In this document: positions 23,559 to 44,866 of the stretch, in pieces
Layout of the letters: each line of letters begins with the position of its first letter
Position numbering within the stretch: position 1 is the first letter of the stretch
Assembly (NCBI GenBank): GCA_965214245.1
Contig: CBDCBL010000010.1
Coordinates: 480,414 to 544,413, forward strand
Reading direction: 5' to 3'
Origin: Acidobacteriota bacterium
GTDB lineage: Bacteria; Acidobacteriota; UBA890
DNA length: 64,000 nt
Made by a program: the position numbers and the translations under genes
Notes under the pieces: generated by a model
The model's input: the letters and a program-made list of their open reading frames with translations, nothing else
The model's database searches: none
Told to the model about the DNA's origin: nothing

Positions 23559-25807
23559 CTACCACCCTGTCGGCACCCGCTGCTTCAACTCCTCGAACCA
23601 GTTGAGAACGACGTTGATGCGGGGGGTGGTGGTCTCTGTGTCTCCCGGGTCACCGCTACTAGCGGGCACCGTCACCAGGAACTTCTGTCCATCGGCGGTA
23701 ACATCGAAGTTGCTTAGGACACGCCTGGTGATGCCGGCGAGCTCGACAGGGTCGGATGCGGAAAACGGCTCCATCTCCACTTCCGCAACGAGGATGCCAG
23801 AGCTGTTGACGGAGCCGTAGTAGATTTCCTTTCCATCCTGCGACCAGCGAGGGCCACCACCACCACGGGTACTCGTAGAGACCGGAAATTTCCGACCGCT
23901 CGATACCTCCCGCACGTACACCTCATATTGCCCGGTCTCGTTCGACATGAAGGCAAAGAAGCGACCGTCCGGCGAGAAACGGCCGCTCCGCTCGTCGGCG
24001 GCGGTATCGACGAGTGTTTCCGTCTGATCTGCATCGAGAGCCAGTATCCCCACGTCGGCAGGGAGGAACCCTCTGGTAAACAGCAGCATCTCACCGTCCG
24101 CCGAGATCGACGTCGGGCTCACGTCATCCTCTGTATCCAACACTCGCTCGGCGTCGAGACTCTGGTCAGCCCGCCGCTTCCAGATGTCGTTATTGCCACC
24201 CCGATCCGACATGAAGAAAACCCACTCTCCATCGGGCGACCAAACAGGGGAACGGTTGTTGCCCTCCGTGGTCAGCAACACCTGGCTGCCTCCTCGTTCA
24301 ACCTCGTAGATCCAGATGTCCCACTTCCCATCATCTCCCTGGATGTCGAGCACGATGCGCTGCTCATCCGGCGAGAGGTCCAAGATCAGAGAGGAACGCG
24401 GCTCGAAGGGCAGCGGCTCAACTTGGCCGTTGTTGCGATCCACCCAGGCGAGTTGGTAAGAATTGTATCACCGCCACCCGGCATGTACACCAGCCCACCT
24501 CGATCCGAAAAGGCGTACTGCCCTGCTCCCCTGGTTTCGATAGCTTGTTCGACGCCCGCAACAATGGACACCGATCCTCCGGTAGCCTCGATGTTGTCTG
24601 CATCGAAGGGCACTGCAAAAAGGTTGCCTTGCAGCGAATAGACGAGGTGGCCGGTGGGCACGTAGCGGCCATCGGTCCCTCCCGCCACCACGAGCCGGAG
24701 CCCCTCAATGCAAACAGCAACCACTCGCCGCCGGGAAGAAGTTGGGGGCCGCGGGCTTGCTCGCCTTCTTCCATTTCAACGACTACCTCTGGCTCCCCGC
24801 CGTTCTCCGAGACACGCAAGATCCCTTTTGCACCCTGCCCGAAGTAAATGTAGCCGTCATCTGCCCAGCTCGCCCCGGAAGCAAACACAGGCGCCGCCCC
24901 CAGCGAGACCGGCGCACCCCCGGTGATCGAAACCTTCTTCATCTGCTCGTCAGCTCTCCAAAAGCCGAGCTGTTGGCCGTCGGGGGAAAAGAACGGCACT
25001 CTGGCACCCTCCGTGCCACGGATGGGTGTGGCAACTGGATCGTCAATCGCTCGCAGCCAAAGCTGCCGGTTTCCGTTAAATACCACCGACCTTCCATCGG
25101 GTGAGATCGCAACGCCCAGGGTGGCAAGGGACTGGAAAGTAGTTTCTGGTGGATAGTCGATGTGGAAACGCGTGATCAGGGGCTCGGGCGGCGACGGAAT
25201 CATGATCCAAACTCCGAGAGCTGCCAGCAGGGCGATGGCCACGGCTATCGGGGCTGCGAGTTTCCATGGGATGCCGCGTGTCATTTCCACGGCGGCAGGA
25301 GCGACAACCGGCTGGCCGTCACCGACCGGCACGGCCACGCCCGCTGTGATGTCGTCGCTGAGCTGCCGGAGGTCGACGACGATCTCGTCGCCCACCTGGT
25401 AGTGGCGATCCGCGTCCTTGGCCAAGCACTTCCGCAGGCTACGGTGCAGCTCGGCGGGCAGATCCGGCTTGATCTCACCCAGAGGTTGAGGCTCAGTACG
25501 GGCGATTGCATGCAGCGTATCGAGGACCGTTTCCCCACCGAACGCTTGCTTTCCAGCGATCATCTCGTACAGGACACAGCCGAAGGCGAACAAGTCGGCG
25601 CGTTGGTCGATCTCCACGTCGCCCTGAATCTGTTCCGGGGCCATGTAGCCGGCGGGTCCCCATTACCTGGCCCGCCACCGTCCCCAGCATGGTCGGCGAC
25701 ATCGACGCCGACGTTCCTGGTGGGGCCGGACCTTCGGTCAGCTTCGCCAGGCCGAAGTCGAGAACCTTCGCGTGGTTGTCGCGGGTCACGAAAATGTTGT
25801 CGGGCTT
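23559..25807 (-). pseudogene. Ser/Thr protein kinase with a transmembrane segment and C-terminal PD40/TolB-like propeller. The 5' end is truncated by IS3 copy A and there are at least 3 frame breaks.
   Basis: HKPDNIFV...DFGLAK catalytic and activation motifs in ORF 25493..25891. APE / subdomain IX-XI in ORF 24418..25644. PD40 repeats in ORFs 24386..24724 and 23559..24443. Kinase subdomains I-V are absent and the IS3 left end abuts at 25808. Confidence 0.7.
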
Positions 25808-25873
25808 GTGACCTGACCCCCCAAACGGATCCAGAGGTAATCTCACGATCCGGGTCGAAAAAGGGAGGTTAGA

Positions 25874-26152
25874 ATGCCGGCGAAGAGGCACAGCGCAGAG
25901 CAGATCGTACGGAAGCTACGGGAGGCTGAGGTGGAGCTGGCCCGCGGCGCGACGGTCAAGGATGCCTGCCGCAAGCTAGCAATCACCGAGCACACCTACT
26001 ACCGGTGGCGACGCGAGTACGGGGGGCTGAGGGTCGACGAGGCCAGGCGGCTGAAGCAACTTGAGAAGGAGAACGTCCGGCTCAAGAAGATTGTGGCGGA
26101 AAAGGAGCTGGATCTTTCGATCCTGAAGGAAGTTGCGGAGGGAAACTTCTGA
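25874..26152 (+). CDS. IS3-family transposase OrfA (helix-turn-helix / leucine-zipper)
   Basis: 92-aa ORF typical of IS3 OrfA. Confidence 0.85.
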
Positions 26153-26226
26153 GCCCGGCACGTCGCCGAGATGCGGTTGAGCATGTTCGGCGGAGGCTGG
26201 GCGTTTCCGAGCGACGAGCGTGCCGG

Positions 26227-27033
26227 GTGCTGAAACAGTCGCGCACGACGCAGCGGTACGTGCCACGGCAACCGGACGACGAGCAGGTGCTGACGGAGAG
26301 GATCGTGAACCTAGCCCGAGAGTATGGCCGCTACGGGTATCGGCGAGTGACGGCGCTACTGCGCATGGAGGGCTGGCTCGTGAACCACAAGCGGGTGCAA
26401 CGGATCTGGCGGCGCGAGGGGCTGAAAGTACCGAAGAAACAGCCCAAGCGAGCACGGCTGTGGCTCAACGATGGCTCCTGCATCCGACTGCGCCCCGAGA
26501 ACAAGGATCATGTCTGGGCGTATGACTTCGTCCACCACCGGACGCATGACGGTCGGGCTATGAGACTGCTGACGATCGTCGACGAGTACACACGGGAGAG
26601 CCTTGCAATCGACGTGGCGCGGAAGCTCAACTCCGAGGACGTACTTCACCGACTAGGACGACTGTTCGTTCATCGAGGTATTCCAGCGCACATCAGGTCA
26701 GATAACGGACCGGAATTCACTGCCGAGGCGGTTCGCGACTGGCTGGGCCGGCTCGGCGTCGGCACGCTGTTCATCGAGCCGGGCTCCCCATGGGAGAACG
26801 GCTATGTGGAGAGCTTCAACGGCAAGCTCAGAGACGAGCTGCTGAACGGGGAGATCTTCTACACGCTGAAGGAGGCAAAGGTTCTGATCGAGAGATGGCG
26901 CCAGCAGTACAACCGCGTACGACCGCACAGCTCGCTGGGCTATCGACCTCCGGCACCGGAAGCGGTGTTGTTGAAACCGGCTACGCTACGCTTCGCTGGC
27001 CTCAACAACCTCTTGTCAGCACCGTGTTACTGA
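26227..27033 (+). CDS. IS3-family transposase OrfB (DDE integrase core). It is expected to be made as an OrfAB fusion by -1 frameshifting.
   Basis: DDE/rve domain, in the -1 frame relative to orfA. Confidence 0.85.
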
Positions 27034-27047
27034 GATAGAAGGTGGTA

Positions 27048-28280
27048 CTAACCGCGGGGTCTGGTCACGGCCAACTCCTCCTGTTGGTCGATGATCGCGG
27101 CGAGATGCCGGTACCCGTCGATGCGGCGCATGCGGATCTGCCCGAACGCGATCAGCCCCCACAGCAGCGTCACCCCGGCCGCCTCGGTGCTGAACGATCC
27201 CTGGGTCTTGGTACGGCGACGGAACTCGCGGTTGAGGTTCTCCAGTGGGTTCGTCGTGCGCAGCGTCTTGCACATCGGTTTGGGGAACTCGTAGAAGGTC
27301 AGCAGCACCAGCCCCGCTTCCTCGAGGCTGCGCGCCACCGCCGGCACCAACCTCGACCACTTGCGCACGAAGTTGCTGTACGCGGCCCTCGCCTCGCTGC
27401 CGTTTGCCGCCTTCACGATGCGGTCCCAGTCTCGTTTCAGCTCGTCGTGGGCGTGTGACGGGCAATGCTTCAACAGATTCTTCCACTTGTGCTGAAGGCA
27501 GCGCTGCACCTTCGCTTCGGGCCACACCGTCGTCGCCTTGGCCAGCCCTTTGTGGCCGTCGGCGATGATCAGCCGGGGCGGCCGAAGACCTCTTTGCTCT
27601 AGGTCCTCGATCAGCCACTTCCAGTGACACCCGGCCTCCGAAGCGGCCCGACGCAACGCCACCAACACCTTGCGCCCATCTTCCGCCACTCCCAGCGCGG
27701 CGAAGATCGGCACCGACACGACCTGCCGCGCCAACCTCACCTTCAGGTGGAACCCGTCCAGGTACACGATCGGGTACGACTCACCGGTCAGATCGCGCTC
27801 GCACCACGTCCCGAACAGCTTCTTCAGCCGCCCCACCACCCTCGAGATCGCGCTCTTCGAGAGGTTCGCTTCACCCAGCAGCGGCGCGAGCGCCTTGCGC
27901 GAGCGCCTTGCGATCCGTCGGCTATTTGCACCCGCCAGGTACACCCCTAGAATCGCCTCGTCGACTTCCTCGGTGCGCCGTTGATACCGCGGCAGGATCG
28001 TGCTGCGGAACTCCCCGGTGCTGCCGTCCTCTCGCAGCAGCCGTCCCCGTGGTACCTCCAGATCCTGCGGCCCCTGCGCCATCGTGATCTGCCGCCGATA
28101 CGTCCCGTGCCGATATCCTCGCCGCGAGCCGTTGCGCTCGTACGGCCCGCATCCCAACGCCTTGGCGAGCTCCTCCTCAAGCGTGATCGTAATCGCCTCC
28201 TGGATGCGGCTGTGCAGCAGCTCCTGGATGGCGCTACGGAACTCGATGACCGATACCTCTCCCGTGCTACCGTTGCTCAT
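27048..28280 (-). CDS. IS256-family transposase, copy 2. It carries a 4-aa insertion, and its C-terminus is altered by read-through into the IS3 end.
   Basis: 410-aa ORF ending ...VTRPRG* with the stop inside the IS3 terminus. Confidence 0.8.
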   Translation of the reverse strand: MSNGSTGEVSVIEFRSAIQELLHSRIQEAITITLEEELAKALGCGPYERNGSRRGYRHGTYRRQITMAQGPQDLEVPRGRLLREDGSTGEFRSTILPRYQRRTEEVDEAILGVYLAGANSRRIARRSRKALAPLLGEANLSKSAISRVVGRLKKLFGTWCERDLTGESYPIVYLDGFHLKVRLARQVVSVPIFAALGVAEDGRKVLVALRRAASEAGCHWKWLIEDLEQRGLRPPRLIIADGHKGLAKATTVWPEAKVQRCLQHKWKNLLKHCPSHAHDELKRDWDRIVKAANGSEARAAYSNFVRKWSRLVPAVARSLEEAGLVLLTFYEFPKPMCKTLRTTNPLENLNREFRRRTKTQGSFSTEAAGVTLLWGLIAFGQIRMRRIDGYRHLAAIIDQQEELAVTRPRG

Positions 28281-28374
28281 GGTGTGACCTCCTTGTTGTC
28301 GCCGTTTCCAGCGACTCGTTTTTCCTACTCGGAGGTTACGCCATTTCTTTTTCTACAGGACTCGGGACGGATCC
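27068..28374 (-). mobile_element. IS256-family element copy 2. It lacks the terminal 74 bp of its transposase-distal end, which is replaced by the IS3 copy A right end.
   Basis: Collinear with copy 1 from the position equivalent to 4101 through the ...GGGACGGATCC end. Contains a 12-bp in-frame tandem duplication in the transposase (27888..27911). Confidence 0.8.
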
Positions 28375-28695
28375 GGACGTCCGGTCGAGAACTGCTACAT
28401 CGAGAGCTTCAACGGCAAGCTACGAGACGAGTGCTTGAGCCAGAGCTGGTTCCTGAGCCTCTCCGAGGCTCAGGAACCAGCTGGACGCATTCCGGAAGGA
28501 CTACAACGAAACGAGACCGCATTCTTCTTTAGGCAACCTGCCGCCTGCCGTGTATGTCCAACTGCTGCAGGAGGTTGCAGCTACCTGATGCCCACTAACC
28601 CGAGTTTTTCTCGTTTTCGATGGACCCAAGTTGGGGTACACCTCAAGCACCGTGTTACTGAGATAGAAGGTGGTACTAACCGCGGGGTCTGGTCA
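28375..28695 (+). mobile_element. 3' fragment of a variant IS3-family element: diverged orfB C-terminus with a frameshift, plus the same 50-bp right terminus.
   Basis: ...[15 protein letters not shown]... and ...KDYNETRPHSSLGNLPPAVY in two frames, then ...AGCACCGTGTTACTGAGATAGAAGGTGGTACTAACCGCGGGGTCTGGTCA. Confidence 0.7.
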
Positions 28696-29700
28696 TCAGG
28701 CCGTAGTCGGCCCCGGCGTGCAGGTGCCCAGCTAAGACTGTATCGGACAGGGTGTCGTCTTGGCGGGAGTTGTAGAACGACAGGGGAGGATCGTAAGCTT
28801 GAGCATTGCCCGATGTGTCCTGGTAATCGGCGGAGAACTGAACCCCGGACACCTTGACGACCGCGGGACCCAGCCCAACGCCCAAGTATGGAGAAATCCC
28901 GCGGTACACATCCGGAAAATCGTAGTATGCATTGAGCGCAAGGGTGTGCACGGAGAGATTGTCGATCGAGGCCCGGGCATTGGATGTGACCATACTACCC
29001 CGTCGTTCCTCCCTGGGCGTCCCATCGTAATAGGTGATGCCGCGGAACATCTGGTCGGTGTTGTTCTTCCGCCGCGCGAGCGATAGCTGCAAGCGTGTGC
29101 GGTTGAAAATGCGGCCGGCCGAGATCTCGAACGTGGCTCCGGCGGCAGCATCGATATCGTAACGTCAGCGGTATCCGGGGATTACGGGAACGGGATCTGT
29201 GTCGAAACAAGCGTCCGTCGGATAGCAGGTCGTCTCCCGATTCCAGCCCTCCTGGTCCATGTTGGATGCCCAATTCGATCCGATGCCCCCGACGACGTAC
29301 CACCCGGCGCGCGACCTGTTCTGGGCCGCCACGTCGGGGATGGAACAGAGCACCGGGATTCCACCAACGGCGGATGCGACCAACGCAAGACGCTCCCCAT
29401 AGTCGGAAATCTCAAGCTCCGGATCATCGAAGCCGATCGGTGGAACCGGTTCGGGCGCCATGCACTCCGGCGCGTCACTCGGCAACATGGCCGAATCGGG
29501 ATACAGCAGCGTATCGTACTTCGTCGGGTTCGTGACCGCGGAAACGGATGAGCCCAGCGTCGCGGCGTTTCCGGTGCCAGCATCGACGCCGACATAGAAA
29601 CCGCGCCGACTTTTCTGGGCGCTGGTCCTACCTGCACTGAGCAGGTAGGTGGCCAACGCCGCGGCAACGAGCGCGCGTGGAAGGCTTGACGATTCTTCAT
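28696..29700 (-). pseudogene. Outer-membrane beta-barrel protein (OmpA-like/OmpW-like barrel). Frame breaks in the signal peptide and mid-gene; the 3' end is truncated by the IS3-variant fragment.
   Basis: Signal-peptide-like ...ALVAAALATYLLSAGRTSAQ is out of frame with the ATG MKNRQ. Alternating beta-strand pattern in ORFs 29165..29656 and 28676..29092. The C-terminus reads into IS sequence. Confidence 0.5.
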
Positions 29701-29826
29701 CGCGGAGTCATGAGAACCTCAGAGCGGCCATGTGGGTGATCTGGGGGCCGGCATGAGCAACCGTGGGCTTTTTCGGCGAAAAGCGTGTGGCATCATGACA
29801 CGCCTACGAAGAACCTTCTGAGCAGC

Positions 29827-31212
29827 CTAGTCTTTGGGACCGAAAACCCACATCGTGCCGATCGTGAACGTATTCTGCCTGGTTCTCAGACCTGACGCGC
29901 CGCAGTCGGTGCATCCGAAGAAGGCTACATCCGACCAGTCACGGCGATACTCAAACCGAGTTAGGAAGCGCGGGTCATCCTTCACCGGCTGGACTTCAAA
30001 CGTAAGTGTATATTCCTTCAGGGTCTGTTCAACACCCGTCGAACGAGCTTCCTGGTCGTCAAGAAACTCAAAGCGATTCGCGATGCGGAACTGATCCGAC
30101 AGGTGAACGCGCGCGTACCCGCCCATCCCCCAAGATGTGGCGCTGACGCCAACCGGATCGTCGGCTTGGATGTAGTCTAGATTCACTATCACCTCGAACC
30201 GATCGTGCAGACTGCCATAAGCGTTCCAGCTCAAGTTCTTGAGCCAACCATCATTAGTCAGCTCGTTCTCGGGACCGTGGATCCAGGTCAGGGTCGTACT
30301 AAAGCGGTCGTTTGGTGCAAACGAACCCTGTACGCCGTAGGATTTGCCAGAGTTCTGATCGAACGCGTTATCGAAGCCGTTCACGAGCATGAAAGTTGCA
30401 GTGAACGTGTCGTTCAGAGGGACACTGATTTTCGCGCCGAGGTGTGAGAAAGGCTCATTCCAAGCCCATAAAATTCCACGAGTATAATTCCAGTTCAAGT
30501 GCGATTCCGGAACCTCAAGACCGGCGATAGTGCCGAACAAACCGACAGCAAGCTCAGCGCCGTTGCCGAAGCTGTAGTAGCCATAAGCCTGTTGCAGATT
30601 TATCACATCTTCCAGCGGTCCCGGTTCTACGCCATCACGAAATAGGCGAGCACCCGAACCGAACCAGATGTCCGAACGAAAGCCGATAGGGCCGTTAATC
30701 GATGCGTCGATTTCGAGTTTGACCTGGTTGAGACCGAAACCGCGTGAATTCGGGTTAGTGTAATAAAGTGTGTTCTGGCCGTCGTCTGGATCGTTGGTAT
30801 TGTACGTCAAATACGTATCCAGCAAGCCAGTGAAACTAATCGACTGGTCGCTGGTGCTTGCGCTTCCTTCCGGGGGATCATCGACCGACTCGACGTCCAT
30901 CACTGTCTTCGGCCGCACACAGATGACCCTATCAATTCCATCGAGGTTAACTTCGTCAGCGGGAGTAGCTGCCACCACGACCACTTCCAACGGAGCGGAA
31001 GTGGTGGCCGGCGCTGTCACGGTAGTCTGTCCGGAGGCACTCGTCTTTTCGAGCATCGACTCAAGCCACAGTATGCATTCACGTAATGACTTGCCTTCCG
31101 CCTGAAGTTCAATCTCAACCGGTTCGGATGACGGGGTCTGAGGCGGGGGAGCCACTAACAGGTCCATCGCGCTGCCCCCAAAGATTAGTGCTGCAGTAAA
31201 GAATTGTATCAA
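29827..31212 (-). CDS. Putative outer-membrane porin with N-terminal coiled-coil region and C-terminal Phe
   Basis: Signal peptide, then about 100-aa low-complexity/coiled-coil region, then a long amphipathic beta-strand domain ending ...MWVF. GC is clearly lower than the surroundings. Confidence 0.55.
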   Translation of the reverse strand: MIQFFTAALIFGGSAMDLLVAPPPQTPSSEPVEIELQAEGKSLRECILWLESMLEKTSASGQTTVTAPATTSAPLEVVVVAATPADEVNLDGIDRVICVRPKTVMDVESVDDPPEGSASTSDQSISFTGLLDTYLTYNTNDPDDGQNTLYYTNPNSRGFGLNQVKLEIDASINGPIGFRSDIWFGSGARLFRDGVEPGPLEDVINLQQAYGYYSFGNGAELAVGLFGTIAGLEVPESHLNWNYTRGILWAWNEPFSHLGAKISVPLNDTFTATFMLVNGFDNAFDQNSGKSYGVQGSFAPNDRFSTTLTWIHGPENELTNDGWLKNLSWNAYGSLHDRFEVIVNLDYIQADDPVGVSATSWGMGGYARVHLSDQFRIANRFEFLDDQEARSTGVEQTLKEYTLTFEVQPVKDDPRFLTRFEYRRDWSDVAFFGCTDCGASGLRTRQNTFTIGTMWVFGPKD

Positions 31213-31357
31213 GGGTTTCTCTCACGGTCACCTATGTGCGGGCGCGCTCAATGTCGCCAGAGCCCGCAGTCCAATCCAATCTATACCATAAGCGGGGAAG
31301 TGGTTTCTCCCTTGGGCCCATTAGAGCTGACCATCCCGGCCACGGGCCGTGCCGAGG

Positions 31358-32644
31358 TCACTCCGAGCCCGTCGGCAGGTCGATACCGCGCGGCCGATCC
31401 CGCAGCATCTTCTCGATGTCGATTCCAGTCGCGGTCTTAAGCTGCTCAAGCAGGGCGACGGCGCTACCGGTGAGGTTGTTGACGTAGTTCGGGATGCCCT
31501 TGCCGTCGCCGCTGTCGACAATCGTCAGCTTGTCCACCGTCAGGTTGTCGGCGATCACCTTGGTCACCTTGTCGAGCAGCTCCGGCATCAGCTGGATGAG
31601 GAATAGGTCGCGGTTCTCGCCGGCCTGCCACTGCTCCCGCATCAACTCGATCACCCGGGCCGTGGCCTGCCCGTCCTCCAGAATTCGCGCCGCGCGCCCC
31701 TTGGCCTCCAGCATGAGCGCCTGGCGTCGTGCCTGCGCGGGCACCACGGTGTCGGCTTCCTCGCGCTTGGCGCTGAGCTCGGCACGGGCTGTCTGCAGCT
31801 CGACCTCCTCCTTTGCCTTGGTGATCGTTCCCGCCACCTCGGCGCGTTGCTCGGCCCGATTGGACTCGGCTCGTAAATCGGCGCGGCGCACCGCGAGTGC
31901 GTTCTCGGCCTTTACAACCGAGATCTCGGCCTCGATCTCCGCCTCTCGCCCTACACGGTCCTGCTCCGCCGACACGCTGCGCGCCTTGGCCTCAGCCTCC
32001 GCTTCGGCGATCCGTGCGTCCCGCCGCACCGCGGCGACCTTCTTTCGACCGATAGCCTCCAAGTAGCCCTGTTCGTCATAGACGCTATCGATCTGGAAGA
32101 TGTCCAGGACTATGCCCAGACGGCTCAGATCGGCGCGCACCCGCTCCGTCACCTGCTCGGCGAGCTGCAACCGCTGGGCGTTGGCCTCCTCCGGGCTGAC
32201 CGTCGCCAGGATTCCACGCAGCGCCCCCTCGATCGCCTGCTGGGAGGTTAGCACCACTGCATCGAACCCCCTATCGAGAAACCGCTCCACGGCAGCTTCC
32301 AGCCCCTCCTCCTCGCGCCCGGCAAGCTTGATATTGGCGTGCCCCTCGATGCTGACCGGGATCATGCCGGCGCACATGGCCTTGCCGAGCTGCACCTGGA
32401 TCGGCTGGCTGGTCAGCGGCAACCGCGCCACCGATTCCAGCAGGGGGCGCTTGAACCCCCGGCCTCCACGGATGATGCGGTAGCCAGTGGTCTTGCCATC
32501 GGCCGTGCGTCGCTTGCGGCCGGCCAACACGACGAGCTCGTTGGGCTGACAGATGATGATGTTAGACTTGATGAAGATCAGCATCAGGAGAACGCTCAGG
32601 GTGCCGAGCCCGAGCGCGATGCCTAGAATCTGTGCTTGCTCCAT
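31358..32644 (-). CDS. SPFH/band-7 family flotillin-like protein
   Basis: N-terminal TM helix MEQAQILGIALGLGTLSVLLMLIF, SPFH domain, long Ala/Glu-rich coiled coil. The ATG at 32644 is 26 bp after the glnA stop. The 601-aa ORF in the track is an upstream over-extension. Confidence 0.75.
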   Translation of the reverse strand: MEQAQILGIALGLGTLSVLLMLIFIKSNIIICQPNELVVLAGRKRRTADGKTTGYRIIRGGRGFKRPLLESVARLPLTSQPIQVQLGKAMCAGMIPVSIEGHANIKLAGREEEGLEAAVERFLDRGFDAVVLTSQQAIEGALRGILATVSPEEANAQRLQLAEQVTERVRADLSRLGIVLDIFQIDSVYDEQGYLEAIGRKKVAAVRRDARIAEAEAEAKARSVSAEQDRVGREAEIEAEISVVKAENALAVRRADLRAESNRAEQRAEVAGTITKAKEEVELQTARAELSAKREEADTVVPAQARRQALMLEAKGRAARILEDGQATARVIELMREQWQAGENRDLFLIQLMPELLDKVTKVIADNLTVDKLTIVDSGDGKGIPNYVNNLTGSAVALLEQLKTATGIDIEKMLRDRPRGIDLPTGSE

Positions 32645-32670
32645 GGGTCCCCCGTCGGTGTGGTAGTCCT

Positions 32671-34107
32671 CTAAACGTTGAAATATAGTGCGAACTCGCC
32701 CGGGTGGGGGCGTAGCCGAATGAAGTCGACCTCGTGCTTGCGCTTGTGGTCGATGTAGGTCTCGAGGAGGTCGGGAGTGAACACCCCGTCGTCGACGAGA
32801 AACCCGTGGTCGCGCTCCAGCGCGTCGAGCGCCGTTGCCAGCGAGCCCGGCGTCTTGGCGATCGCATCGCCATCCTCGGTCCCCGACAACTCGTAAATGT
32901 CCTTGTCGATCGGCGCCGGCGGCTCGATCCGATTGTTGATGCCGTCGAGTCCGGCCAGAAGTATCGCCGCGAACGCCAGGTACGGATTGCTCGACGGGTC
33001 GGGGGTGCGGTACTCGATGCGCTTCGAGGCCGGGCTGGTCCCAACCATCGGTACCCGAATGCAGGCGCTCCGGTTGCCCCGCGAGTACACCAGGTTGATC
33101 GGTGCCTCGTACCCGGGCACGAGGCGCCGGTAGGAGTTGGTCGTGGGGTTGCACAGCGCGCATAGCGCCGGCGAATGGCGCAACAGCCCGCCGATGAAGT
33201 GGATCGCCGTACGGCTGAGCCCCGCATAGCCGTCGGGGTTATAGAAGAGGTTCGTGCCCTCCTTCCAGAGGCTCAGGTGCACGTGCATGCCGGAGCCGTT
33301 CTCCTCGAACAGCGGCTTGGGCATGAACGTGGCGGCTTTGCCGTATCGCCGCGCGACGTTCTTCACGACGTACTTGAACTTCACCGCGTTGTCGGCCGCC
33401 CGCTGAAGGGGAGCGAAGCGCATGCCGATCTCGTTCTGGCCTGCCGCCGCGACCTCGTGATGATGGAACTCGGCGCGCACCCCGACGCTGCGCAAAATGG
33501 TCGTCATCTTGGAGCGCAGGTTGTGATATCGGTCGACCGGAGGCGAAGCGAAGTAGGCACCCCTGCGTTCGCCGCGATGGCCCAGGTTGTCTTCCTCCCG
33601 CTCGCCGGTGTTCCAGAAGGCGCCTTCGTTGTTGACGAAGTAGAAGCCGTGCTGGGTGGTCTGGTCGTAGCGCACGTTGTCGAACAGAAAGAACTCGAGC
33701 TCGGGACCGCAGAACACGTCGTCCGCGATACCCAACGAGCGCACCAGCTGGGCGGCGCGCTGTGCGACGCTGCGCGCGTCCCGCGTGTAGGGCTTGAACC
33801 CGTCCGGGTCGACCACCTTGCAGAAGAACGACAACGTCGGGGCTTCGAAGAACGGATCGTGCATCATCGACGCCGGATCCGGAACCATGATCATGTCGCT
33901 GTTGTCGATCGCCTGGAATCCGCGGATCGACGAGCCGTCGAGGCCGAGGCCGTTGACGAACACGTCGTCGTCGATCTCCTCGATCGGAAGCGTCAGGTGG
34001 TGCAGGGTTCCGAAGAGGTCGACGAACTTCACATCTACGAACTCGATATCGTGCTCCTCGGCGTGGAGAAACACGTCCCGTGCGGTCGTCGGTCGCTCTC
34101 TAGCCAC
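32671..34107 (-). CDS. glnA: Glutamine synthetase type I
   Basis: 478 aa, GS beta-grasp and catalytic domains, highly conserved throughout. Confidence 0.9.
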   Translation of the reverse strand: MARERPTTARDVFLHAEEHDIEFVDVKFVDLFGTLHHLTLPIEEIDDDVFVNGLGLDGSSIRGFQAIDNSDMIMVPDPASMMHDPFFEAPTLSFFCKVVDPDGFKPYTRDARSVAQRAAQLVRSLGIADDVFCGPELEFFLFDNVRYDQTTQHGFYFVNNEGAFWNTGEREEDNLGHRGERRGAYFASPPVDRYHNLRSKMTTILRSVGVRAEFHHHEVAAAGQNEIGMRFAPLQRAADNAVKFKYVVKNVARRYGKAATFMPKPLFEENGSGMHVHLSLWKEGTNLFYNPDGYAGLSRTAIHFIGGLLRHSPALCALCNPTTNSYRRLVPGYEAPINLVYSRGNRSACIRVPMVGTSPASKRIEYRTPDPSSNPYLAFAAILLAGLDGINNRIEPPAPIDKDIYELSGTEDGDAIAKTPGSLATALDALERDHGFLVDDGVFTPDLLETYIDHKRKHEVDFIRLRPHPGEFALYFNV

Positions 34108-34110
34108 GCG

Positions 34111-34449
34111 TCAGCCCAGCGCCCTGTCGCCGCGCTCACCGGTGGCAACGAGCACAACGTCGTGAAGGTCGATCACGAAGATGATCCCGAAGCCACCGGT
34201 GTCACGTGCCGCCTGCTCGATAGCGTTGACGGCCACTTCCACCATCTCCTCGCGAATGGCGAGCTCGATGCGCACCTTCTGGAACAGTGACACCTCGTGG
34301 GCGACGCCGCGGAACGAATAAACCTCGGCACCGCTGGCCGCGGTGCCGAGGATGTTGGTCGCCGTGAGGTACCTGATCTGCGCTTCGAACAGGGCTTCCT
34401 TCACCGCTGGAAGCTGCTGCGGCTCGACGATTGCAACGACCATCTTCAT
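34111..34449 (-). CDS. glnK: Nitrogen regulatory protein P-II
   Basis: 112 aa starting MKMVVAIVEP. T-loop region ...RGVAHEV... P-II signature. Immediately downstream of amtB. Confidence 0.85.
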   Translation of the reverse strand: MKMVVAIVEPQQLPAVKEALFEAQIRYLTATNILGTAASGAEVYSFRGVAHEVSLFQKVRIELAIREEMVEVAVNAIEQAARDTGGFGIIFVIDLHDVVLVATGERGDRALG

Positions 34450-34468
34450 ACCGTTGGCGCTCCCCGTT

Positions 34469-35722
34469 TCAGTCGGCGATGAAGATCTGGAATCCGCTGT
34501 ACGACTCGATCCCGTGCTCCTCGAGGTCGAGACCGCGCAGCTCGACCTCGCGCGAAACACGGAGCCCGACGGTAAGATCGATGAAGCGGAACACGGCCCA
34601 CATCGCCACCCCGACGAAGCTCAGGCTGGCGATCACACCGAGTGCCTGGATACCCAGGCTTCCCAAGCCGCCACCGTAGAACAGACCTTCGCCAGGGGCG
34701 CCAAGAGCCGCCTGCCCGAAGATCCCGACAGCCAAAGTGCCCCAGATGCCTGCCATCCCGTGTACGGGAATGGCACCCACCGCATCGTCGACCTGCCGCT
34801 GGGTGAGCCAGTTCTCGCCCAGAACGATGATTATTCCGGCGGCGATCCCAATGTAAATCGAGGCGCCATGTCCTACCACCGCACACGGAGCCGTAATCCC
34901 TACCAAGCCCCCGAGCGCACCGTTCAGCGTCAGCGCCAGATCGGGCTTGCCGAACTTCATCCACGCCGTCAGCATGGCGGCCATCGAGCCCGCCGCGGCG
35001 GCGAGCGTAGTGTTCATGACGATGCGGGCGACCAGACCCGGGCTCTCCATACTGAGCGTCGAACCCGCGTTGAAGCCATACCAGCCGAACCAGAGGATGA
35101 AGACTCCCAGCGTCACGAGCGGCATGTTGTGCCCGCCGATGACGTTGGCTGATCCGTCCGGGTTGAAGCGCCCGATGCGGGGACCCAGCATGTAGCTGCC
35201 GGTCAACGCTGTGACGCCGCCGACTAAGTGAACAACCGTCGACCCGGCGAAGTCGTAGAAACCAAGCTGCGACAGCCAGCCGCCGCCCCAAACCCAGTGT
35301 CCGACGATCGGGTAGATGAATGCCGTCATGCTGAACGAGTACGCCAGGTAGGCTACGAAGCGCATACGCTCGGCCATCGCACCCAACGCGATGGTGGCCG
35401 CCGTGCCGGCAAACACGACCTGGAAGAACCAGAAGGCCGCCAGAGGCAACGTCTCCACCGGACTCTCGGCGCCCACCATGAACCACCCGGAAGTGCCAAG
35501 GACCAGCCCGGCCGACCCATACATGATCGCGTAGCCAAACGCGTAGTAGCCGAACACCGCGAAGCAGAAGTCCATGAGGTTCTTCATGAGGATGTTGGCG
35601 GCGTTCTTGGCGCGAATCAGCCCCGCCTCGACCATGCCGAACCCAGCCTGCATCAGGAAGACGAGGATTGCCGCCATGAGTACCCACATGGTGCTCAAGC
35701 CGTCGTAAAGCTCTGGCTCCAT
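34469..35722 (-). CDS. amtB: Ammonium transporter (Amt family)
   Basis: 417 aa, 11-12 TM helices, conserved Amt motifs. Forms the canonical amtB-glnK pair. Confidence 0.9.
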   Translation of the reverse strand: MEPELYDGLSTMWVLMAAILVFLMQAGFGMVEAGLIRAKNAANILMKNLMDFCFAVFGYYAFGYAIMYGSAGLVLGTSGWFMVGAESPVETLPLAAFWFFQVVFAGTAATIALGAMAERMRFVAYLAYSFSMTAFIYPIVGHWVWGGGWLSQLGFYDFAGSTVVHLVGGVTALTGSYMLGPRIGRFNPDGSANVIGGHNMPLVTLGVFILWFGWYGFNAGSTLSMESPGLVARIVMNTTLAAAAGSMAAMLTAWMKFGKPDLALTLNGALGGLVGITAPCAVVGHGASIYIGIAAGIIIVLGENWLTQRQVDDAVGAIPVHGMAGIWGTLAVGIFGQAALGAPGEGLFYGGGLGSLGIQALGVIASLSFVGVAMWAVFRFIDLTVGLRVSREVELRGLDLEEHGIESYSGFQIFIAD

Positions 35723-35849
35723 AGCAGTCTTCGCGATCAGCGGTTTACGAGGCGTAGGTACAGGCGGCGCCTACTATCGTCGTCCCCCGAGCAATCCTGT
35801 GGCGTTCGACCTGCGGACGAACAAAACGTATACCGCATCACCGGTCAGA

Positions 35850-36109
35850 TGTCAAAACGCTCTCGGCAGCGCGAGAATCTTGTCGCGACCGCCTTTTTGC
35901 ATGGGATTCCTGCGAGGGCCGTGACGATTGGATTGACGATCGGAACTATCAATTCGGCCGTCATCCTGTCTGGAGCGCTATTGAGTACCGGTGACATCGG
36001 TGCTGCGCCCGCGGCGCTGATAGTTCAGGTTTACACCTTGCCGATACTGTTTGGATTTTTCTCGCAAGCTGTCTCCTATCGGCGCGCGGTAAAAATCTTC
36101 GCAGCCTAG
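35850..36109 (+). CDS. Small two-TM membrane protein, possibly NrtS-like
   Basis: 86 aa. Pattern ...TIGTINSAVILSGALLSTGD...YTLPILFGFFSQ resembles the small NrtS family. The assignment is from memory only. Confidence 0.3.
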
Positions 36110-36129
36110 ATGGTGCTCGAATTACCCGT

Positions 36130-37098
36130 ATGGAAAAACACAAGGAGAGCAAACCAATGAACACGAGTGACGCTGGACTCTTGGCTAATGTGAGACCTGA
36201 GAAAACGCGATTGAACACCGATCGGAGCAACACGATGGCAAAACAGAATCGTCTGCTGGTTACCAAGACCGTGCGGCTGAGGAAAGAAGGGCTCAACGTC
36301 CGCTATGCCGAGTTGGGCGACCCCACGAATCCGCCGGTGTTATTACTGCATGGCGTTCCCGAGAATCTGCAGGCCTGGTACGCCGTGGCGCCGCTCCTGG
36401 CCGAAAAGCACCATGTGCTGGCGCTCGATTGGCCTGGTTTCGGCGGGAGCGACCCGTTTCCGTCGTCCGAGGACTACACTTCACGCCGCTTTGCGGAGGT
36501 GATTGTAGACTTCATGGACTCGCTTCACATCCGTCAAGCAAGCCTGGTGGCCACCGACATTGCCCTCCTTCCTTCGCTACTGGTCGGCCTAGAGCACCCG
36601 AGCCGCGTCTCGAAGCTGGCGGTGATGGACGGCATTCCGTTTCCGCGGCCACAGCACTCCTCCTGGGAGCTCAAGAGTTTTGCCAAGAAGGGCTCGATCC
36701 TCGGCAAGGCCCTGGTGCGCTGGTTTCCGCGCATCACAGCCCAAATTTTGTATCTCAAAGGATTTTACCGGGGGCACTCCATCCCGGCTGAGGTGCGCCG
36801 AGAGTTCTTGGCCGATGGTGTGAGTAAGCGCACCCAAGAGGCGTTTCTGTCGTACTTCCAGAACTTCCGCGTGGGCCAAGAGTACTTTGAGCCTCGCGCA
36901 CACGAGCTTCAAACACCCGTGCTAGTGGTGTGGGGCAAATACGATCGCTTCATCAGCAGCAAGCTGGGGCATGAGATTGCGGAAAAGCTGCCAAACGCCA
37001 AGCTGGAGGTAATCGACAAGTCCAGCCACTACGTACACATGGACAAATCCCAGGAGCTGGTGCAGGTGGTGAGCACGTTCCTCGACGAGGTGGCCTGA
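36130..37098 (+). CDS. Alpha/beta-hydrolase fold enzyme (epoxide-hydrolase/haloalkane-dehalogenase-like with Asp nucleophile)
   Basis: HGVPEN oxyanion region and nucleophile elbow LVATDIAL (Asp not Ser). The real start may be the ATG at 36235. Confidence 0.65.
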   Translation: MEKHKESKPMNTSDAGLLANVRPEKTRLNTDRSNTMAKQNRLLVTKTVRLRKEGLNVRYAELGDPTNPPVLLLHGVPENLQAWYAVAPLLAEKHHVLALDWPGFGGSDPFPSSEDYTSRRFAEVIVDFMDSLHIRQASLVATDIALLPSLLVGLEHPSRVSKLAVMDGIPFPRPQHSSWELKSFAKKGSILGKALVRWFPRITAQILYLKGFYRGHSIPAEVRREFLADGVSKRTQEAFLSYFQNFRVGQEYFEPRAHELQTPVLVVWGKYDRFISSKLGHEIAEKLPNAKLEVIDKSSHYVHMDKSQELVQVVSTFLDEVA

Positions 37099-37212
37099 CC
37101 ACGGCGATTGCGTTGCCGGCGTGACCCCGATTGCCTCGGGGCCCTTTCTGACACCCGGATCCTGCGATCCCGGATGACACCGACAGCAGAGGCGGTCTAG
37201 GTGAGCAGCTCT

Positions 37213-37842
37213 TTAGAAGCCGTCGCGCCATGATTCGTGGCCGAGCCGCCACCCGAGCTCGCGTTTCGCTTTCGTGTTCGACGCGCCGCGCTGTTCGGTC
37301 ATCAGATAGGTGGGCAAAGGCCCGACCGCTTCGAGGGCCGCCGCTGGCGAAATTCGCTCGGGTGCGTGGGCGGATAGAAGCTCCGCATAGACAGGCAACC
37401 ACTCGCTGACCGGTGCGGGTGTGTCGTCGACGATGTTGTAGACACCCAGTGGCCCATGTTTCAGAGCGCAGACCGTTGCCGCAGCGGCGTCATCGATGTG
37501 AATGAACGAATACGTTCCCGCGCCGCTGCCAACAATGGGCATTTGGCCGCTGCCGACACTCTCGGCAACCCAGCCGCCGGGCTCATAATAGGTACCGGGT
37601 CCATAAAGTGGCCGTACCGGAGCACGATTCCTGCGATCCCGTCCGCTGAGAGAGTTTGACGCTCGAGCTCGGCCACTGCCTCGACGAGAGGCTTAACCTC
37701 CTCCGGCGCGTCGAGATAGAGCGGCGTGCTCTCATCCGTCAGGCCGTCGCCTGCCGGTGCGCAAAGAGACGAGATGTGGCTGATGAAACGCGAGGCGCCC
37801 GCAGCCTGCGCCGCCGCCATCAGGTTGCGGGTACCTTTGGAC
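37213..37842 (-). pseudogene. NAD(P)-dependent epimerase/dehydratase (extended SDR), C-terminal two-thirds. It is separated from its N-terminus by an IS3-family insertion and carries one frame break.
   Basis: ...GTRNLMAAAQAAGASRF... and C-terminal ...YNIVDD... motifs. ORFs 37461..37877 and 37213..37542 are in different frames. Confidence 0.6.
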
Positions 37843-37891
37843 TTGACCCGATTTCGTGGACACCTTACGACGTACACGGGAGGTGTTCAGG

Positions 37892-38206
37892 ATGCCAAGG
37901 ACAAGAGGGCCGTACCCGGCGGAGTTTCGGCGGCGGATCATAGAAGTGGCACGAGCTGGGCGGAGCGTCGCCGAGCTGGCCAAGGAGTTCGAGCCGTTGT
38001 ACTGGACGATTCGCCAGTGGATCAAGCAGGCTGACCGCGACGAAGGCCGCAGCGCCGAAGGGCTCAGCACTGCTGAGCGCGAGGAGCTGGGGCGGCTGCG
38101 GAAAGAGAACCGCCAGCTGAAGCAAGAGCGGGAGATCCTTTCAAAAGCCGCGGCCTGGTTCGCTCGGGAGACCGACTCGGTACCGCCGAAGTCTTCGAGT
38201 TCGTGA
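37892..38206 (+). CDS. IS3-family transposase OrfA
   Basis: MPRTRGPYPAEFRRRIIEVARAG... HTH, then leucine zipper. Confidence 0.8.
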   Translation: MPRTRGPYPAEFRRRIIEVARAGRSVAELAKEFEPLYWTIRQWIKQADRDEGRSAEGLSTAEREELGRLRKENRQLKQEREILSKAAAWFARETDSVPPKSSSS

Positions 38207-39058
38207 GCGGTCACCAGGCGAAGTATCCGATTGCCACGATGTGCCGTGTGCTGGAGGTCTCCACCAGCGGGTACTACGCGTGGCGCCGGCGGGAACCGTC
38301 GGCTCGATCGCGGGCGGACGCAAAGCTGCAGGCACGGATCGAAGCGATCCACAGGGAGAGCCGAGGCACCTACGGTCGCCCTCGGATCCACGCCGATCTG
38401 CGAGCCGACGGTGTGGGTGTTGGCTGGCGGCAAGCGTGTGGGGCGCTTGATGCGACGTGCAAGCCTGCAGGGCGTCAGCCGTAGGCGACGCGTTCGGACA
38501 ACGCGGCGAAATCGGGAAGCCCGCCCAGTTCCGGACCTGGTTGAGCGCAAGTTCAGAGCCGACCGCCCCGACAGGCTTTGGGTGGCGGACATAACCTACA
38601 TCCCAACGTGGGCAGGGTTCTTGTACTTGTCGGTCGTCGTGGACGTCTTCAGCCGTCGCGTTGTCGGTTGGTCAATGGCGACCCATCTGCGCACCGAGCT
38701 CGTGCTCAAGGCGCTGAACATGGCGATCTCGCAACGACGGCCCCAACAGGTGATTCATCACAGTGACCAAGGTACGCAGTACACGTCGATCGCCTTCGGT
38801 CAGCGCTGCCAGGAGGTCGGGGTGCGACCGTCGACCGGATCAGCCGGTGACTGCTACGACAACGCGATGTGCGAGAGCTTCTTCGCCACCCTCGAGTGCG
38901 AGCTCCTGAACCGCCGGCGGCGGTTCAGGTCCCAGGCGGAAGCCCGCATGGCCGTCTTCGAGTTCATCGAGGGCTTCTACAACCCGCGTCGCAGACACTC
39001 ACCCCTGGACTACGACTCGCCCATGGGGTACGAAAGGAGGCACGCTCAGATCGCTTAA
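38203..39058 (+). CDS. IS3-family transposase OrfB (DDE integrase), frame-broken
   Basis: N-terminal part in ORF 38203..38484, DDE core in ORF 38231..39058 (...HSDQGTQYTS...DNAMCESFF...). Confidence 0.75.
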
Positions 39059-39160
39059 ATGTGAGCGGGAAACCGTCCACCAAAGCGCGGCAACTCCACT
39101 TCGATGCGCAACCGATTGGTCTCCGCCATGGGATCTTTTGCCGTCGCACTAAAACTCGTG

Positions 39161-39389
39161 AGCTGTGGATGATGACTTCCGGCGCCGCACGCCCGGCAAT
39201 CTCGTTGAGCCGGGCAACGTCGAACACGTCGCCGAGCACGGGCTCCGCACCCATGGCCTCCACACCGTCGAACTTTTGGGGGTCGCGCGTCAGTGCGACA
39301 ACCTCGTGTCCCTCTTTGACAAGCATGGGCACGAGAGAGCGGCCGATCGCGCCGGTGGCTCCAGCTACAAGTATCTTCATTATAGCCAT
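39161..39389 (-). pseudogene. N-terminal Rossmann-fold fragment of the same NAD(P)-dependent epimerase
   Basis: MKILVAGATGAIGRSLVPMLVKEGHEVVALTRD... glycine-rich dinucleotide motif. Continues into IS-derived sequence after ...EVIIH. Confidence 0.65.
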
Positions 39390-39449
39390 CTTCCCATTCG
39401 GGAGGCGATCCCGAGTTGGTGCAATCGCCTAGAGTCAAAATTCCCGGCC

Positions 39450-40025
39450 TCAGGTAAGGACGACGATCTTGCCGCCAGCCGCGTTGTCTTCCATGCAGCG
39501 GTGCGCCTCCACGATGTCGTCGAGTTGAAAGACGCGTCCGATCTTGGGCGTCATACGCCCCGTTTCTACTTCGTTCACCACCGTCTGGAGCGGTGTATCG
39601 ACAAAGTCCCCGGAGCCACCCGCATACGTGGTCAGGCTTACCGTGGACGGGATCGCGCCCATCGGACTGAATTGCTCGAGCTCCCATGCGTTGCCGACCA
39701 TGCCGGTCATGCACACCGCGCCGAAGCGCGCAGCGCATCGCAGCGAGTCGAGTAGCGTGGTGGTGTCGACGAGCTCGAGCACCTTGTCGACACCGTCGGG
39801 GAAGAGGCACCGGAGATCGTCGGCGATCTCGCCGCTGTCGATGAACACATGATCCGCGCCGTTATCCTCCAACATGTCTTGACGATCAGCCTTTCGGGTC
39901 GTCGCAGCGACCGTCGCACCTTGCTGTTTGGCCAGCACGGCGGCGGCCAAGCCCACCGAGGTTGTGCCGCCGCGAATCAACAAGCTCTGACCGGGTTGGG
40001 ATCCGTCCCGAGTCCTGTAGAAAAA
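39450..40025 (-). pseudogene. Zinc-type MDR quinone oxidoreductase/alcohol dehydrogenase, C-terminal nucleotide-binding half only. The 5' end is truncated by the IS256 fragment.
   Basis: ...PGQSLLIRGGTTSVGLAAAVLAKQQGA... cofactor-binding motif begins right at the IS256 end. The catalytic N-terminal domain is absent. Confidence 0.65.
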
Positions 40026-40389
40026 GAAATGGCGTAACCTCCGAGTAGGAAAAACGAGTCGCTGGAAACGGCGACAACAAGAAGATCACACCATGAGCAA
40101 CGGTAGCACGGGAGAGGTATCGGTCATCGAGTTCCGTAGCGCCATCCAGGAGCTGCTGCACAGCCGCATCCAGGAGGCGATTACGATCACGCTTGAGGAG
40201 GAGCTCGCCGAGGCGTTGGGATGCGGGCCGTACGAGCGCAACGGCTCGCGGCGAGGATATCGGCACGGGACGTATCGGCGGCAGATCACGATGGCGCAGG
40301 GGCCGCAGGATCTGGAGGTACCACGGGGACGGCTGCTGCGAGAGGACGGCAGCACCGGGGAGTTCCGCAGCACGATCCTGCCGCGGTAT
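40026..40389 (+). mobile_element. IS256-family fragment (transposase-proximal end plus first 98 codons), truncated by IS3 copy B
   Basis: GGATCCGTCCCGAGTCCTGTAGAAAAAG... end. ORF 40093..40392 is the N-terminus of the IS256 transposase and stops at the IS3 terminal TGA. Confidence 0.85.
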
Positions 40390-40423
40390 TGACCAGACCC
40401 CGCGGTTAGTACCACCTTCTATC

Positions 40424-41230
40424 TCAGTAACACGGTGCTGACAAGAGGTTGTTGAGGCCAGCGAAGCGTAGCGTAGCCGGTTTCAACAACACCGCTTCCA
40501 GTGCCGGAGGTCGATAGCCCAGCGAGCTGTGCGGTCGTACGCGGTTGTACTGCTGGCGCCATCTCTCGATCAGAACCTTTGCCTCCTTCAGCGTGTAGAA
40601 GATCTCCCCGTTCAGCAGCTCGTCTCTGAGCTTGCCGTTGAAGCTCTCCACATAGCCGTTCTCCCATGGGGAGCCCGGCTCGATGAACAGCGTGCCGACG
40701 CCGAGCCGGCCCAGCCAGTCGCGAACCGCCTCGGCGGTGAATTCCGGTCCGTTATCTGACCTGATGTGCGCTGGAATACCTCGATGAACGAACAGTCGTC
40801 CTAGTCGGTGAAGTACGTCCTCGGAGTTGAGCTTCCGCGCCACGTCGATTGCAAGGCTCTCCCGTGTGTACTCGTCGACGATCGTCAGCAGCCTCATAGC
40901 CCGACCGTCATGCGTCCGGTGGTGGACGAAGTCATACGCCCAGACATGATCCTTGTTCTCGGGGCGCAGTCGGATGCAGGAGCCATCGTTGAGCCACAGC
41001 CGTGCTCGCTTGGGCTGTTTCTTCGGTACTTTCAGCCCCTCGCGCCGCCAGATCCGTTGCACCCGCTTGTGGTTCACGAGCCAGCCCTCCATGCGCAGTA
41101 GCGCCGTCACTCGCCGATACCCGTAGCGGCCATACTCTCGGGCTAGGTTCACGATCCTCTCCGTCAGCACCTGCTCGTCGTCCGGTTGCCGTGGCACGTA
41201 CCGCTGCGTCGTGCGCGACTGTTTCAGCAC
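40424..41230 (-). CDS. IS3-family transposase OrfB
   Basis: 268 aa, one substitution relative to copy A. Confidence 0.85.
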
Positions 41231-41304
41231 CCGGCACGCTCGTCGCTCGGAAACGCCCAGCCTCCGCCGAACATGCTCAACCGCATCTCGGCGACGTGCC
41301 GGGC

Positions 41305-41583
41305 TCAGAAGTTTCCCTCCGCAACTTCCTTCAGGATCGAAAGATCCAGCTCCTTTTCCGCCACAATCTTCTTGAGCCGGACGTTCTCCTTCTCAAGTTG
41401 CTTCAGCCGCCTGGCCTCGTCGACCCTCAGCCCCCCGTACTCGCGTCGCCACCGGTAGTAGGTGTGCTCGGTGATTGCTAGCTTGCGGCAGGCATCCTTG
41501 ACCGTCGCGCCTCGGGCCAGCTCCACCTCAGCCTCCCGTAGCTTCCGTACGATCTGCTCTGCGCTGTGCCTCTTCGCCGACAT
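41305..41583 (-). CDS. IS3-family transposase OrfA
   Basis: 92 aa, starting MSAKRH versus MPAKRH in copy A. Confidence 0.85.
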
Positions 41584-41649
41584 TCTGACCTCCCTTTTTC
41601 GACCCAGATCGTGAGATTACCTCTGGATCCGTTTTGGGGGGTCAGGTCA

Positions 41650-44769: not shown

Positions 44770-44792
44770 GGCAGGCTAGGAATCTGAAAAAG

Positions 44793-44866
44793 TCGGGGTG
44801 AGAGGATTTGAACCTCCGACCCCCTGCTCCCAAAGCAGGTGCGCTTCCGGACTGCGCCACACCCCG
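44793..44866 (-). tRNA. tRNA-Pro (anticodon TGG)
   Basis: 74 nt. Acceptor CGGGGTG/CACCCCG, D-arm GCGC-AGTCCGGAA-GCGC, anticodon arm CCTGC-TTTGGGA-GCAGG, T-arm GGAGG-TTCAAAT-CCTCT, discriminator A. Folded by hand. Confidence 0.85.

Follow-up and report, generated by a model that had tools for sequence, protein, structure and literature searches.

The window analysed here, a 64-kb stretch of one contig from an uncultured Acidobacteriota bacterium rich in insertion sequences (ISs), contains a 15.8-kb unit in which two inverted IS3-family elements, each fused on its inner side to a truncated IS256-family copy, enclose the ammonium-assimilation genes amtB, glnK and glnA. The unit is best explained as an IS nest and rearrangement scar around a native operon and not as an element that has moved, a reading to which we assign a probability of roughly 80%. 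On this reading, its composite-transposon appearance is mimicry produced by IS expansion, insertion of one IS into another and recombination, and structures of this kind are known. A first-pass annotation of the window had offered two readings, an IS-built mobile module and the scar of serial IS-mediated inversions and deletions. The evidence favours the second. The first is unsupported because there is no target-site duplication, the flanks are two unrelated truncated genes, a single genomic context is known, the two IS3 copies have diverged by 0.6% and the core cargo is ancestral.

Repeats in the window were detected by self-BLAST, protein domains were assigned with Pfam and families with NCBIfam cutoffs. 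These searches, together with two colinear contigs described below (L001 and L002), bear out the inverted pair of IS407-like elements of the IS3 family (hereafter IS3) around the ammonium-assimilation genes. ISs account for 36.6% of the sequence of the unit and for 13.6% of that of the window, whose G+C content (GC) is 64%. Copy 1 (25809-27067, plus strand) is 1259 bp long and copy 2 (40390-41649, minus strand) 1260 bp. They had been described as identical; they are in fact 99.37% identical, with 7 mismatches and one 1-bp indel. Both carry intact orfA and orfB genes and run from TGACCTGACCCC to GGGGTCTGGTCA, and the outer terminus TGACCTGACCCC is intact in each. The terminal inverted repeats, TGACCTGACCCC / TGACCAGACCCC, are of the TG...CA type and resemble that of IS407; 11 of 12 bases agree with the consensus inverted repeat of IS407A, TGACCTGCCCCCT (PMC2877748, Table 2). 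OrfA is a 92-aa HTH_Tnp_1 protein and OrfB a 268-aa rve/rve_3 protein that scores 225.8 bits against the NCBIfam IS3 family transposase (transpos_IS3; cutoff 160). The orfB gene lies in the -1 frame, open from 26065, and a canonical slippery heptamer, G GGA AAC, directly precedes the orfA stop. The closest plasmid-borne IS3-family transposases are about 70-73% identical to OrfB, so that the element is a new IS within a known family.

The IS256-family element of the window is 1368 bp long when complete. It matches Pfam Transposase_mut (3.1e-76) and NCBIfam transpos_IS256 (281.9 bits, cutoff 150), and one full copy (copy B, below) has an 8-bp target duplication, in keeping with the single Mutator-type transposase, imperfect terminal inverted repeats and 8-9-bp duplication expected of the IS256 family. 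In the unit, the left copy (27068-28374, minus strand) retains positions 74-1368, and its transposase frame reads through into the IS3. The right remnant (39999-40389, plus strand) is inverted relative to the left copy and retains positions 978-1368, 391 bp in all, with 977 bp missing. The inward-facing geometry had been recognised correctly at first pass, and only its limits need adjusting: the left copy lacks 73 bp rather than 74, the right remnant is 391 bp long rather than 364 bp from 40026, and the cargo spans 28375-39998 instead of 28375-40025, within a 13.3-kb interior between the IS3 copies. An intact IS256 terminus (...GGGACGGATCC) faces the cargo at 28374 and at 39999. The two remnants differ by 3 mismatches in 391 bp and are no nearer to each other than to other copies, and the two IS3 copies are likewise no nearer to each other than to copies elsewhere.

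On both sides it is the right terminus of IS3 that joins IS256, at position 74 of the left IS256 copy and position 978 of the right one, with the two elements oriented alike relative to each other at both junctions, and on the outer side each left terminus adjoins a 5'-truncated gene, an arrangement already reported in the first-pass annotation and upheld by reading frames that run to the IS boundary. The left gene encodes a Ser/Thr kinase-PD40 protein (24418-25808, minus strand); the left end of IS3 interrupts it within the catalytic loop, and it carries a frameshift as well. Its frame starts at the IS3 boundary with the catalytic-loop motif KPDNIFV and covers only positions 164-249 of the Pfam Pkinase profile. 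The right gene, a sortilin/BNR-repeat gene (41651-43779, plus strand), has an open frame that starts at the IS3 boundary and is broken by a frameshift further along. No N-terminal kinase fragment was found elsewhere in the window, and, apart from the same truncated protein, a homologue search for an intact allele returned nothing closer than paralogues or orthologues of at most 71% identity; the context of the 71% homologue (L084) is not syntenic with the window. No target duplication surrounds either IS3 copy, as had been noted before, or the unit as a whole, whose flanks are CTTG and CGAC. The kinase-PD40 gene (23559-25808), the sortilin-like gene and a PAS-GGDEF gene (43796-44769) are each split by frameshifts, and the identical split gene calls in L001 and L002 reflect either real pseudogenes or systematic long-read errors.

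The IS3 element is very abundant, its exact OrfB protein being listed in 72 blocks of the contig index. None of the five full copies examined (the two in the window and those in L086, L087 and L088) has a target duplication, and half of their ten ends abut other ISs. This suggests either genome-wide IS-IS recombination or an unusual mode of insertion. L086 is a four-element nest of IS256 / IS3 / IS3 / IS3v, in which an IS3 left end meets IS256 at position 691 in the opposite relative orientation and the right end meets another IS3, followed by IS3v; in L088 the IS3 copy adjoins an IS3 fragment. Because the geometry of the L086 junction is opposite, the fusion of the IS3 right end to IS256 seen in the window is not a general rule. 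A relative of IS3 in L084, 82% identical, has a possible 3-bp duplication, TCC. By contrast, two other elements of the region are simple insertions: IS3v, a third IS3-family element (37838-39098, plus strand, 1261 bp) with the 3-bp target duplication CTT, and the full IS256-family copy B (59785-61152, minus strand, 1368 bp) with the 8-bp target duplication CGCCGACG. Full IS256-family copy A (4027-5394, minus strand, 1368 bp) has no target duplication and may also be a rearrangement breakpoint. IS copies with mismatched flanks in a genome with many such copies, as a rearrangement scar should show, are what is seen here.

An exact-protein look-up with AmtB identified two more assemblies from different samples, a 404-kb contig (L001, ERZ25069191) that contains the whole unit and a 15.9-kb contig (L002, ERZ25070530) that contains its right half. 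They are colinear with the window and 99.78% and 99.86% identical to it, respectively, and the unit has a single orientation in all three assemblies. The IS3 copy on the kinase side and that on the sortilin side are told apart by five copy-specific single-nucleotide polymorphisms (SNPs), at IS3 positions 44, 63, 70, 138 and 758, of which four are consistent in every assembly; at position 44 the sortilin-side copy of L002 has the kinase-side base. In L001 the kinase-side orfB is broken. Since the assemblies are colinear and the copy-specific SNPs stable, the junctions are reproducible and mis-assembly is unlikely, and the two IS3 copies appear to be distinct loci in the course of divergence. 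A search for the unit at a second locus had been suggested. AmtB, the flotillin, the truncated sortilin and the 99-aa product of the IS256/IS3 fusion at the right junction were all retrieved from this locus only, although such look-ups depend on exact-protein matches in incomplete databases, so that the single context is absence of evidence.

The core of the cargo is an operon of amtB (34469-35722), glnK (34111-34449), glnA (32671-34074) and an SPFH/flotillin gene (31358-32644, 428 aa), all assigned by Pfam and all on the minus strand, together spanning 31358-35722; a BBP2 (OmpL-like) porin gene (29827-31212, minus strand, 54% GC) lies beyond the flotillin gene. A GlnA scan covered 185,579 species genomes, and the window genes were then compared with the retrieved loci by tblastn. 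The order of the four genes recurs in Acidobacteriota, Gemmatimonadota, a Gammaproteobacteria metagenome-assembled genome (MAG) and a Syntrophales MAG, and both order and orientation are kept in L003, L004, L005, L006, L009, L010, L015, L020, L090 and L091. Flotillin identity is 55-87% in most of the cluster loci and about 45-48% in the Syntrophales and Marinacidobacterium loci. In L003, the closest species representative (86% GlnA identity), and in L090, a 5.76-Mb contig with 79% nucleotide identity across the operon, the cluster lies in IS-free surroundings. No IS3 or IS256 matches were found beside it in these two loci or in the retrieved flanks of the Gemmatimonadota and Syntrophales MAGs, and in the Gammaproteobacteria MAG the sole IS3-family match is about 7 kb away. 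Past the operon there is no synteny between the window and L003 or L090. The presence of amtB-glnK-glnA-flotillin without ISs in relatives is the outcome that had been set beforehand as refuting a mobile module.

Closer relatives bring out both the age of the cargo and the instability around it. Nucleotide identity across the operon steps down from 99% in L089 through 83% in L091 to 79% in L090. L089 (ERZ25766727 ctg226538) belongs to a strain 99.0% identical over window positions 35892-29812, a 6.1-kb block from amtB through the porin. The similarity ends at 29812, 15 bp past the porin stop, where L089 continues with a fragment of an IS630 element, a relative of IS3 at 82% identity and, unrelated to anything in the window, a gene with an aminoglycoside phosphotransferase (APH) domain. 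That gene was considered as the missing kinase N-terminus and rejected, as it is of the aminoglycoside-phosphotransferase type and shows no such similarity. The L089 contig begins where the hydrolase module of the window starts, so both edges of the native block vary between strains. L091 has the operon and porin, with other IS fragments upstream. That operon and porin are kept with graded identity amid differing IS debris in L089 and L091 argues for vertical inheritance within the lineage and for surroundings that serve as a recurrent collecting site for ISs. In L089 and L091, too, the BBP2 porin gene adjoins the flotillin gene, but the more distant L090 and L003 lack it; low in GC yet conserved in the closer relatives, the porin gene points to an older lineage-specific acquisition linked to the ammonium operon.

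A history in four parts would account for the unit. The operon would first have been flanked by two IS256 insertions, one within an older IS3-like element by the outer-membrane protein gene and the other within a quinone oxidoreductase (QOR) gene. The abundant IS407-like IS3 would then have inserted into each IS256, at positions 73/74 and 977/978, a step visible only as the junctions. Next, homologous recombination between each IS3 and another IS3 in the same orientation, the partners lying in the kinase gene on the left and the sortilin-like gene on the right, would have deleted the outer parts of IS256 and the adjoining DNA; adjacent deletion carried out by the transposase would leave the same structure. 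Each side would then have a single IS3 copy that lacks a target duplication and whose flanks do not match. Besides these events, the hydrolase module was probably gained beside amtB, and IS3v entered the epimerase gene by simple insertion. The only activity that the unit plausibly retains is homologous recombination between the inverted 1.26-kb IS3 copies, which would invert the 13.3-kb interior.

Several points weigh against this account. The order of events, and the choice between recombination and adjacent deletion, are inferred. No ancestral IS-free allele from the same species was found among the retrieved loci, and the missing parts of the kinase, sortilin, QOR and IS256 sequences were sought within the 64-kb window only. 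Both IS3 copies in the window keep orfA, orfB and their outer ends, making composite transposition possible in principle, and the lack of a duplication at all five full IS3 copies could reflect an unusual property of the element. The repeats of the unit are far beyond chance, and its symmetry is only weakly non-random: given two IS3/IS256 junctions, a matching end, a matching relative orientation and an inverted placement coincide by chance about once in 8, a mild coincidence if the two sides arose by independent events. Two single-step routes to this symmetry were rejected. Intramolecular replicative inversion by IS3 predicts that the right-end neighbour of one IS3 and the left-end neighbour of the other are halves of one target, and these neighbours are IS256 and the sortilin gene; as for inversion through IS256, the 8-mers next to the inner ends, GGACGTCC and CCGGGTTG, do not repeat each other in either direct or reverse-complement form.

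Among the alternatives to a scar, the one that survives best, and is still improbable, is a recombinational switch, in which the segment can still be turned round through the inverted IS3 pair and each turn alters expression of the nitrogen operon or of flanking genes. A pair of 1.26-kb inverted repeats sharing 99.4% identity is well suited to RecA-dependent inversion. However, the segment has one orientation in all three assemblies, the flanking genes are dead fragments so that no promoter-swap logic is apparent, and the copy-specific SNPs give no sign of homogenisation by gene conversion. There is a similarly slim chance, which no observation favours, that the 15.8-kb segment is still active in a broader sense, inverting through the IS3 pair or occasionally mobilised as a composite bounded by two left inverted repeats (IRL-IRL); if so, an essential nitrogen-assimilation operon, amtB-glnK-glnA-flotillin-porin, would ride on a movable or invertible cassette.

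A decayed IS256 composite that brought the interior (28375-39998) from elsewhere, before IS3 destroyed its outer ends, has an equally small likelihood. IS256 forms composite transposons such as Tn4001, an inverted IS256 pair does bracket the interior, and the interior holds at least one horizontally spread module, that of the hydrolase. A structure like Tn4001 should nevertheless have two complete IS256 copies with functional outer ends, and here both outer ends are gone, which also leaves no target duplication to inspect. The IS256 inner termini abut truncated resident sequences, the IS3b fragment on one side and the QOR gene on the other, as would follow from two independent insertions. Relatives have the operon and porin, at 99% and 83% nucleotide identity, without this IS256 pair, and the remnants match each other no better than they match other copies.

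A functional composite transposon bounded by IS3, with the inverted copies supplying transposase and outer left ends that mobilise the 13.3-kb interior, is very improbable. Its attraction lies in the near-identical inverted pair, whose outer termini, orfA and orfB are intact in the window, and in the many copies of an IS3 that is evidently active or recently so. Two IS copies with intact outer ends are, however, the only mark of a composite transposon that the unit bears; no duplication brackets it, no second context was found and, apart from the hydrolase module, the cargo does not look foreign, the flanks being two unrelated truncated genes and the core cargo being vertically inherited. There are 8 differences between the IS3 copies, and most of them hold in all assemblies, which argues against recent co-mobilisation, and orfB on the kinase side is broken in L001. 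Elements of the IS3 family move by a copy-out-paste-in route through a circle that joins the left and right ends of one element, and a 15.8-kb IRL-IRL unit would be an inefficient substrate for such movement. Least credible is an artefact in which a long-read metagenome assembler collapsed or mis-joined repeats at low coverage: contig names indicate only 3-8x coverage, repeats of 1.26-1.37 kb at about 99% identity are very numerous, and mis-threading would also predict the lack of duplications at every IS3 copy, but the same colinear structure comes from different samples, the copy-specific SNPs stay with the same flanks in all assemblies and the frames of the truncated genes run exactly to the IS termini.

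The remaining cargo agrees with the first-pass gene list in its outer-membrane protein fragments, porin, flotillin, glnA, glnK, amtB, hydrolase, split epimerase and truncated QOR. The label 'NrtS-like' for a small gene found no support, neither candidate small ORF having a Pfam or NCBIfam match. Next to the left IS256 copy lies IS3b, the 3' end of a diverged IS3-like element (28375-28695, plus strand, 321 bp; translation ...RPHSSLG). Over its last 50 bp (28646-28695) the fragment agrees at 100% with the right end of the abundant IS3, its sole strong DNA match, 28375-28645 being only patchily similar; the identical terminus may reflect an exchange of ends, or gene conversion, among related ISs. 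Outer-membrane beta-barrel gene fragments follow (28696-29811, minus strand), with weak matches to Pfam Surface_Ag_2 and OMP_b-brl, and are absent from L089. On the other side of the operon, the NAD-dependent epimerase gene (37213-37837 and 39099-39389, minus strand) is interrupted by IS3v, and the N-terminally truncated QOR gene (39450-39998, minus strand) has only its ADH_zinc_N half and abuts the IS256 terminus. Outside the unit, an orphan right-end fragment of the IS407-like IS3 (21137-21309, plus strand, 173 bp) lies upstream of a molybdopterin oxidoreductase gene. A tRNA and Rfam scan of the window for island-type integration signals found no integrase near the sole RNA gene detected, a tRNA-Pro (TGG) at 44792-44866 on the minus strand, 3.1 kb to the right of the unit.

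The hydrolase module (35873-37096, plus strand) consists of the 3' part of a small ORF and an alpha/beta hydrolase gene. It has 86.6% nucleotide identity to a MarR-149aa-hydrolase module of other contigs (L094-L097), where the module sits among IS3, IS256, integrase and toxin-antitoxin genes in IS-rich islands, and the hydrolase itself is 80-90% identical to proteins labelled as from other phyla (Gammaproteobacteria, Gimesia). Judged from these similarities, the module was probably acquired horizontally. They also suggest that the hydrolase is a widely exchanged gene. The cargo had been described as a GC mosaic; this holds for the hydrolase module, which at 57% GC looks acquired, and fails for the low-GC porin, which is conserved beside the operon in the closest relatives.

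The structure of the unit matters little in itself. Of more value may be the amtB-glnK-glnA-SPFH cluster, which spans several phyla, and the highly conserved, apparently horizontally spread hydrolase module. A full-text literature search combining amtB, glnK, glnA and flotillin found no paper, and the conserved association of a flotillin-like scaffold with ammonium assimilation may not have been described before. The unit is a caution for annotation: before inverted ISs around housekeeping genes are called a transposon, a target duplication or a second context should be in evidence.

Like classical composites such as Tn10, Tn5 and the IS256-based Tn4001, the unit has an inverted IS pair around non-IS genes, and even an inner inverted IS256 pair. 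Unlike them, it has no target duplication, its flanks are not halves of one target, it is known from a single context, its core cargo is a native housekeeping operon and its IS256 outer ends are missing. The IS nests of IS-expanded genomes are a second point of reference: the window has IS3 in IS256, IS256 beside IS3b and orphan ends, and further nests occur in L086 and L088. Nothing essential separates the unit from such nests, except that here the nest symmetrically surrounds an intact, presumably functional operon.

The IS407A scars of Burkholderia mallei are the closest precedent. In that species ISBma1 and ISBma2 are both targets of IS407A insertion (Song et al., PMC2877748), and ISBma1, which makes an 8-bp duplication, is a neutral secondary entry point for it (PMC2877748). 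Recombination among IS407A copies has led to deletions and rearrangements, which most core copies border, and 83.7% of the copies have lost matching 4-bp target duplicates in this way (PMC2877748). The two cases differ in that B. mallei is a host-restricted pathogen and the present source an uncultured environmental bacterium, that the IS3 described here is new, with an OrfB at most about 73% identical to plasmid-borne transposases, and that an IS-poor sister genome on which each deletion could be mapped is lacking here. The likenesses (PMC2877748; PMC2839346) are an IS407-type IS3 element, with the inverted repeat TGACCTGACCCC here and TGACCTGCCCCC in IS407A; another IS with an 8-bp duplication as the entry point, ISBma1 there and an IS256-family element here; and a majority of copies that have no matching target duplicates and border deletions or rearrangements. 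The unit thus documents, in an uncultured Acidobacteriota lineage, an expansion of IS407-like and IS256-like elements that parallels the one in B. mallei.

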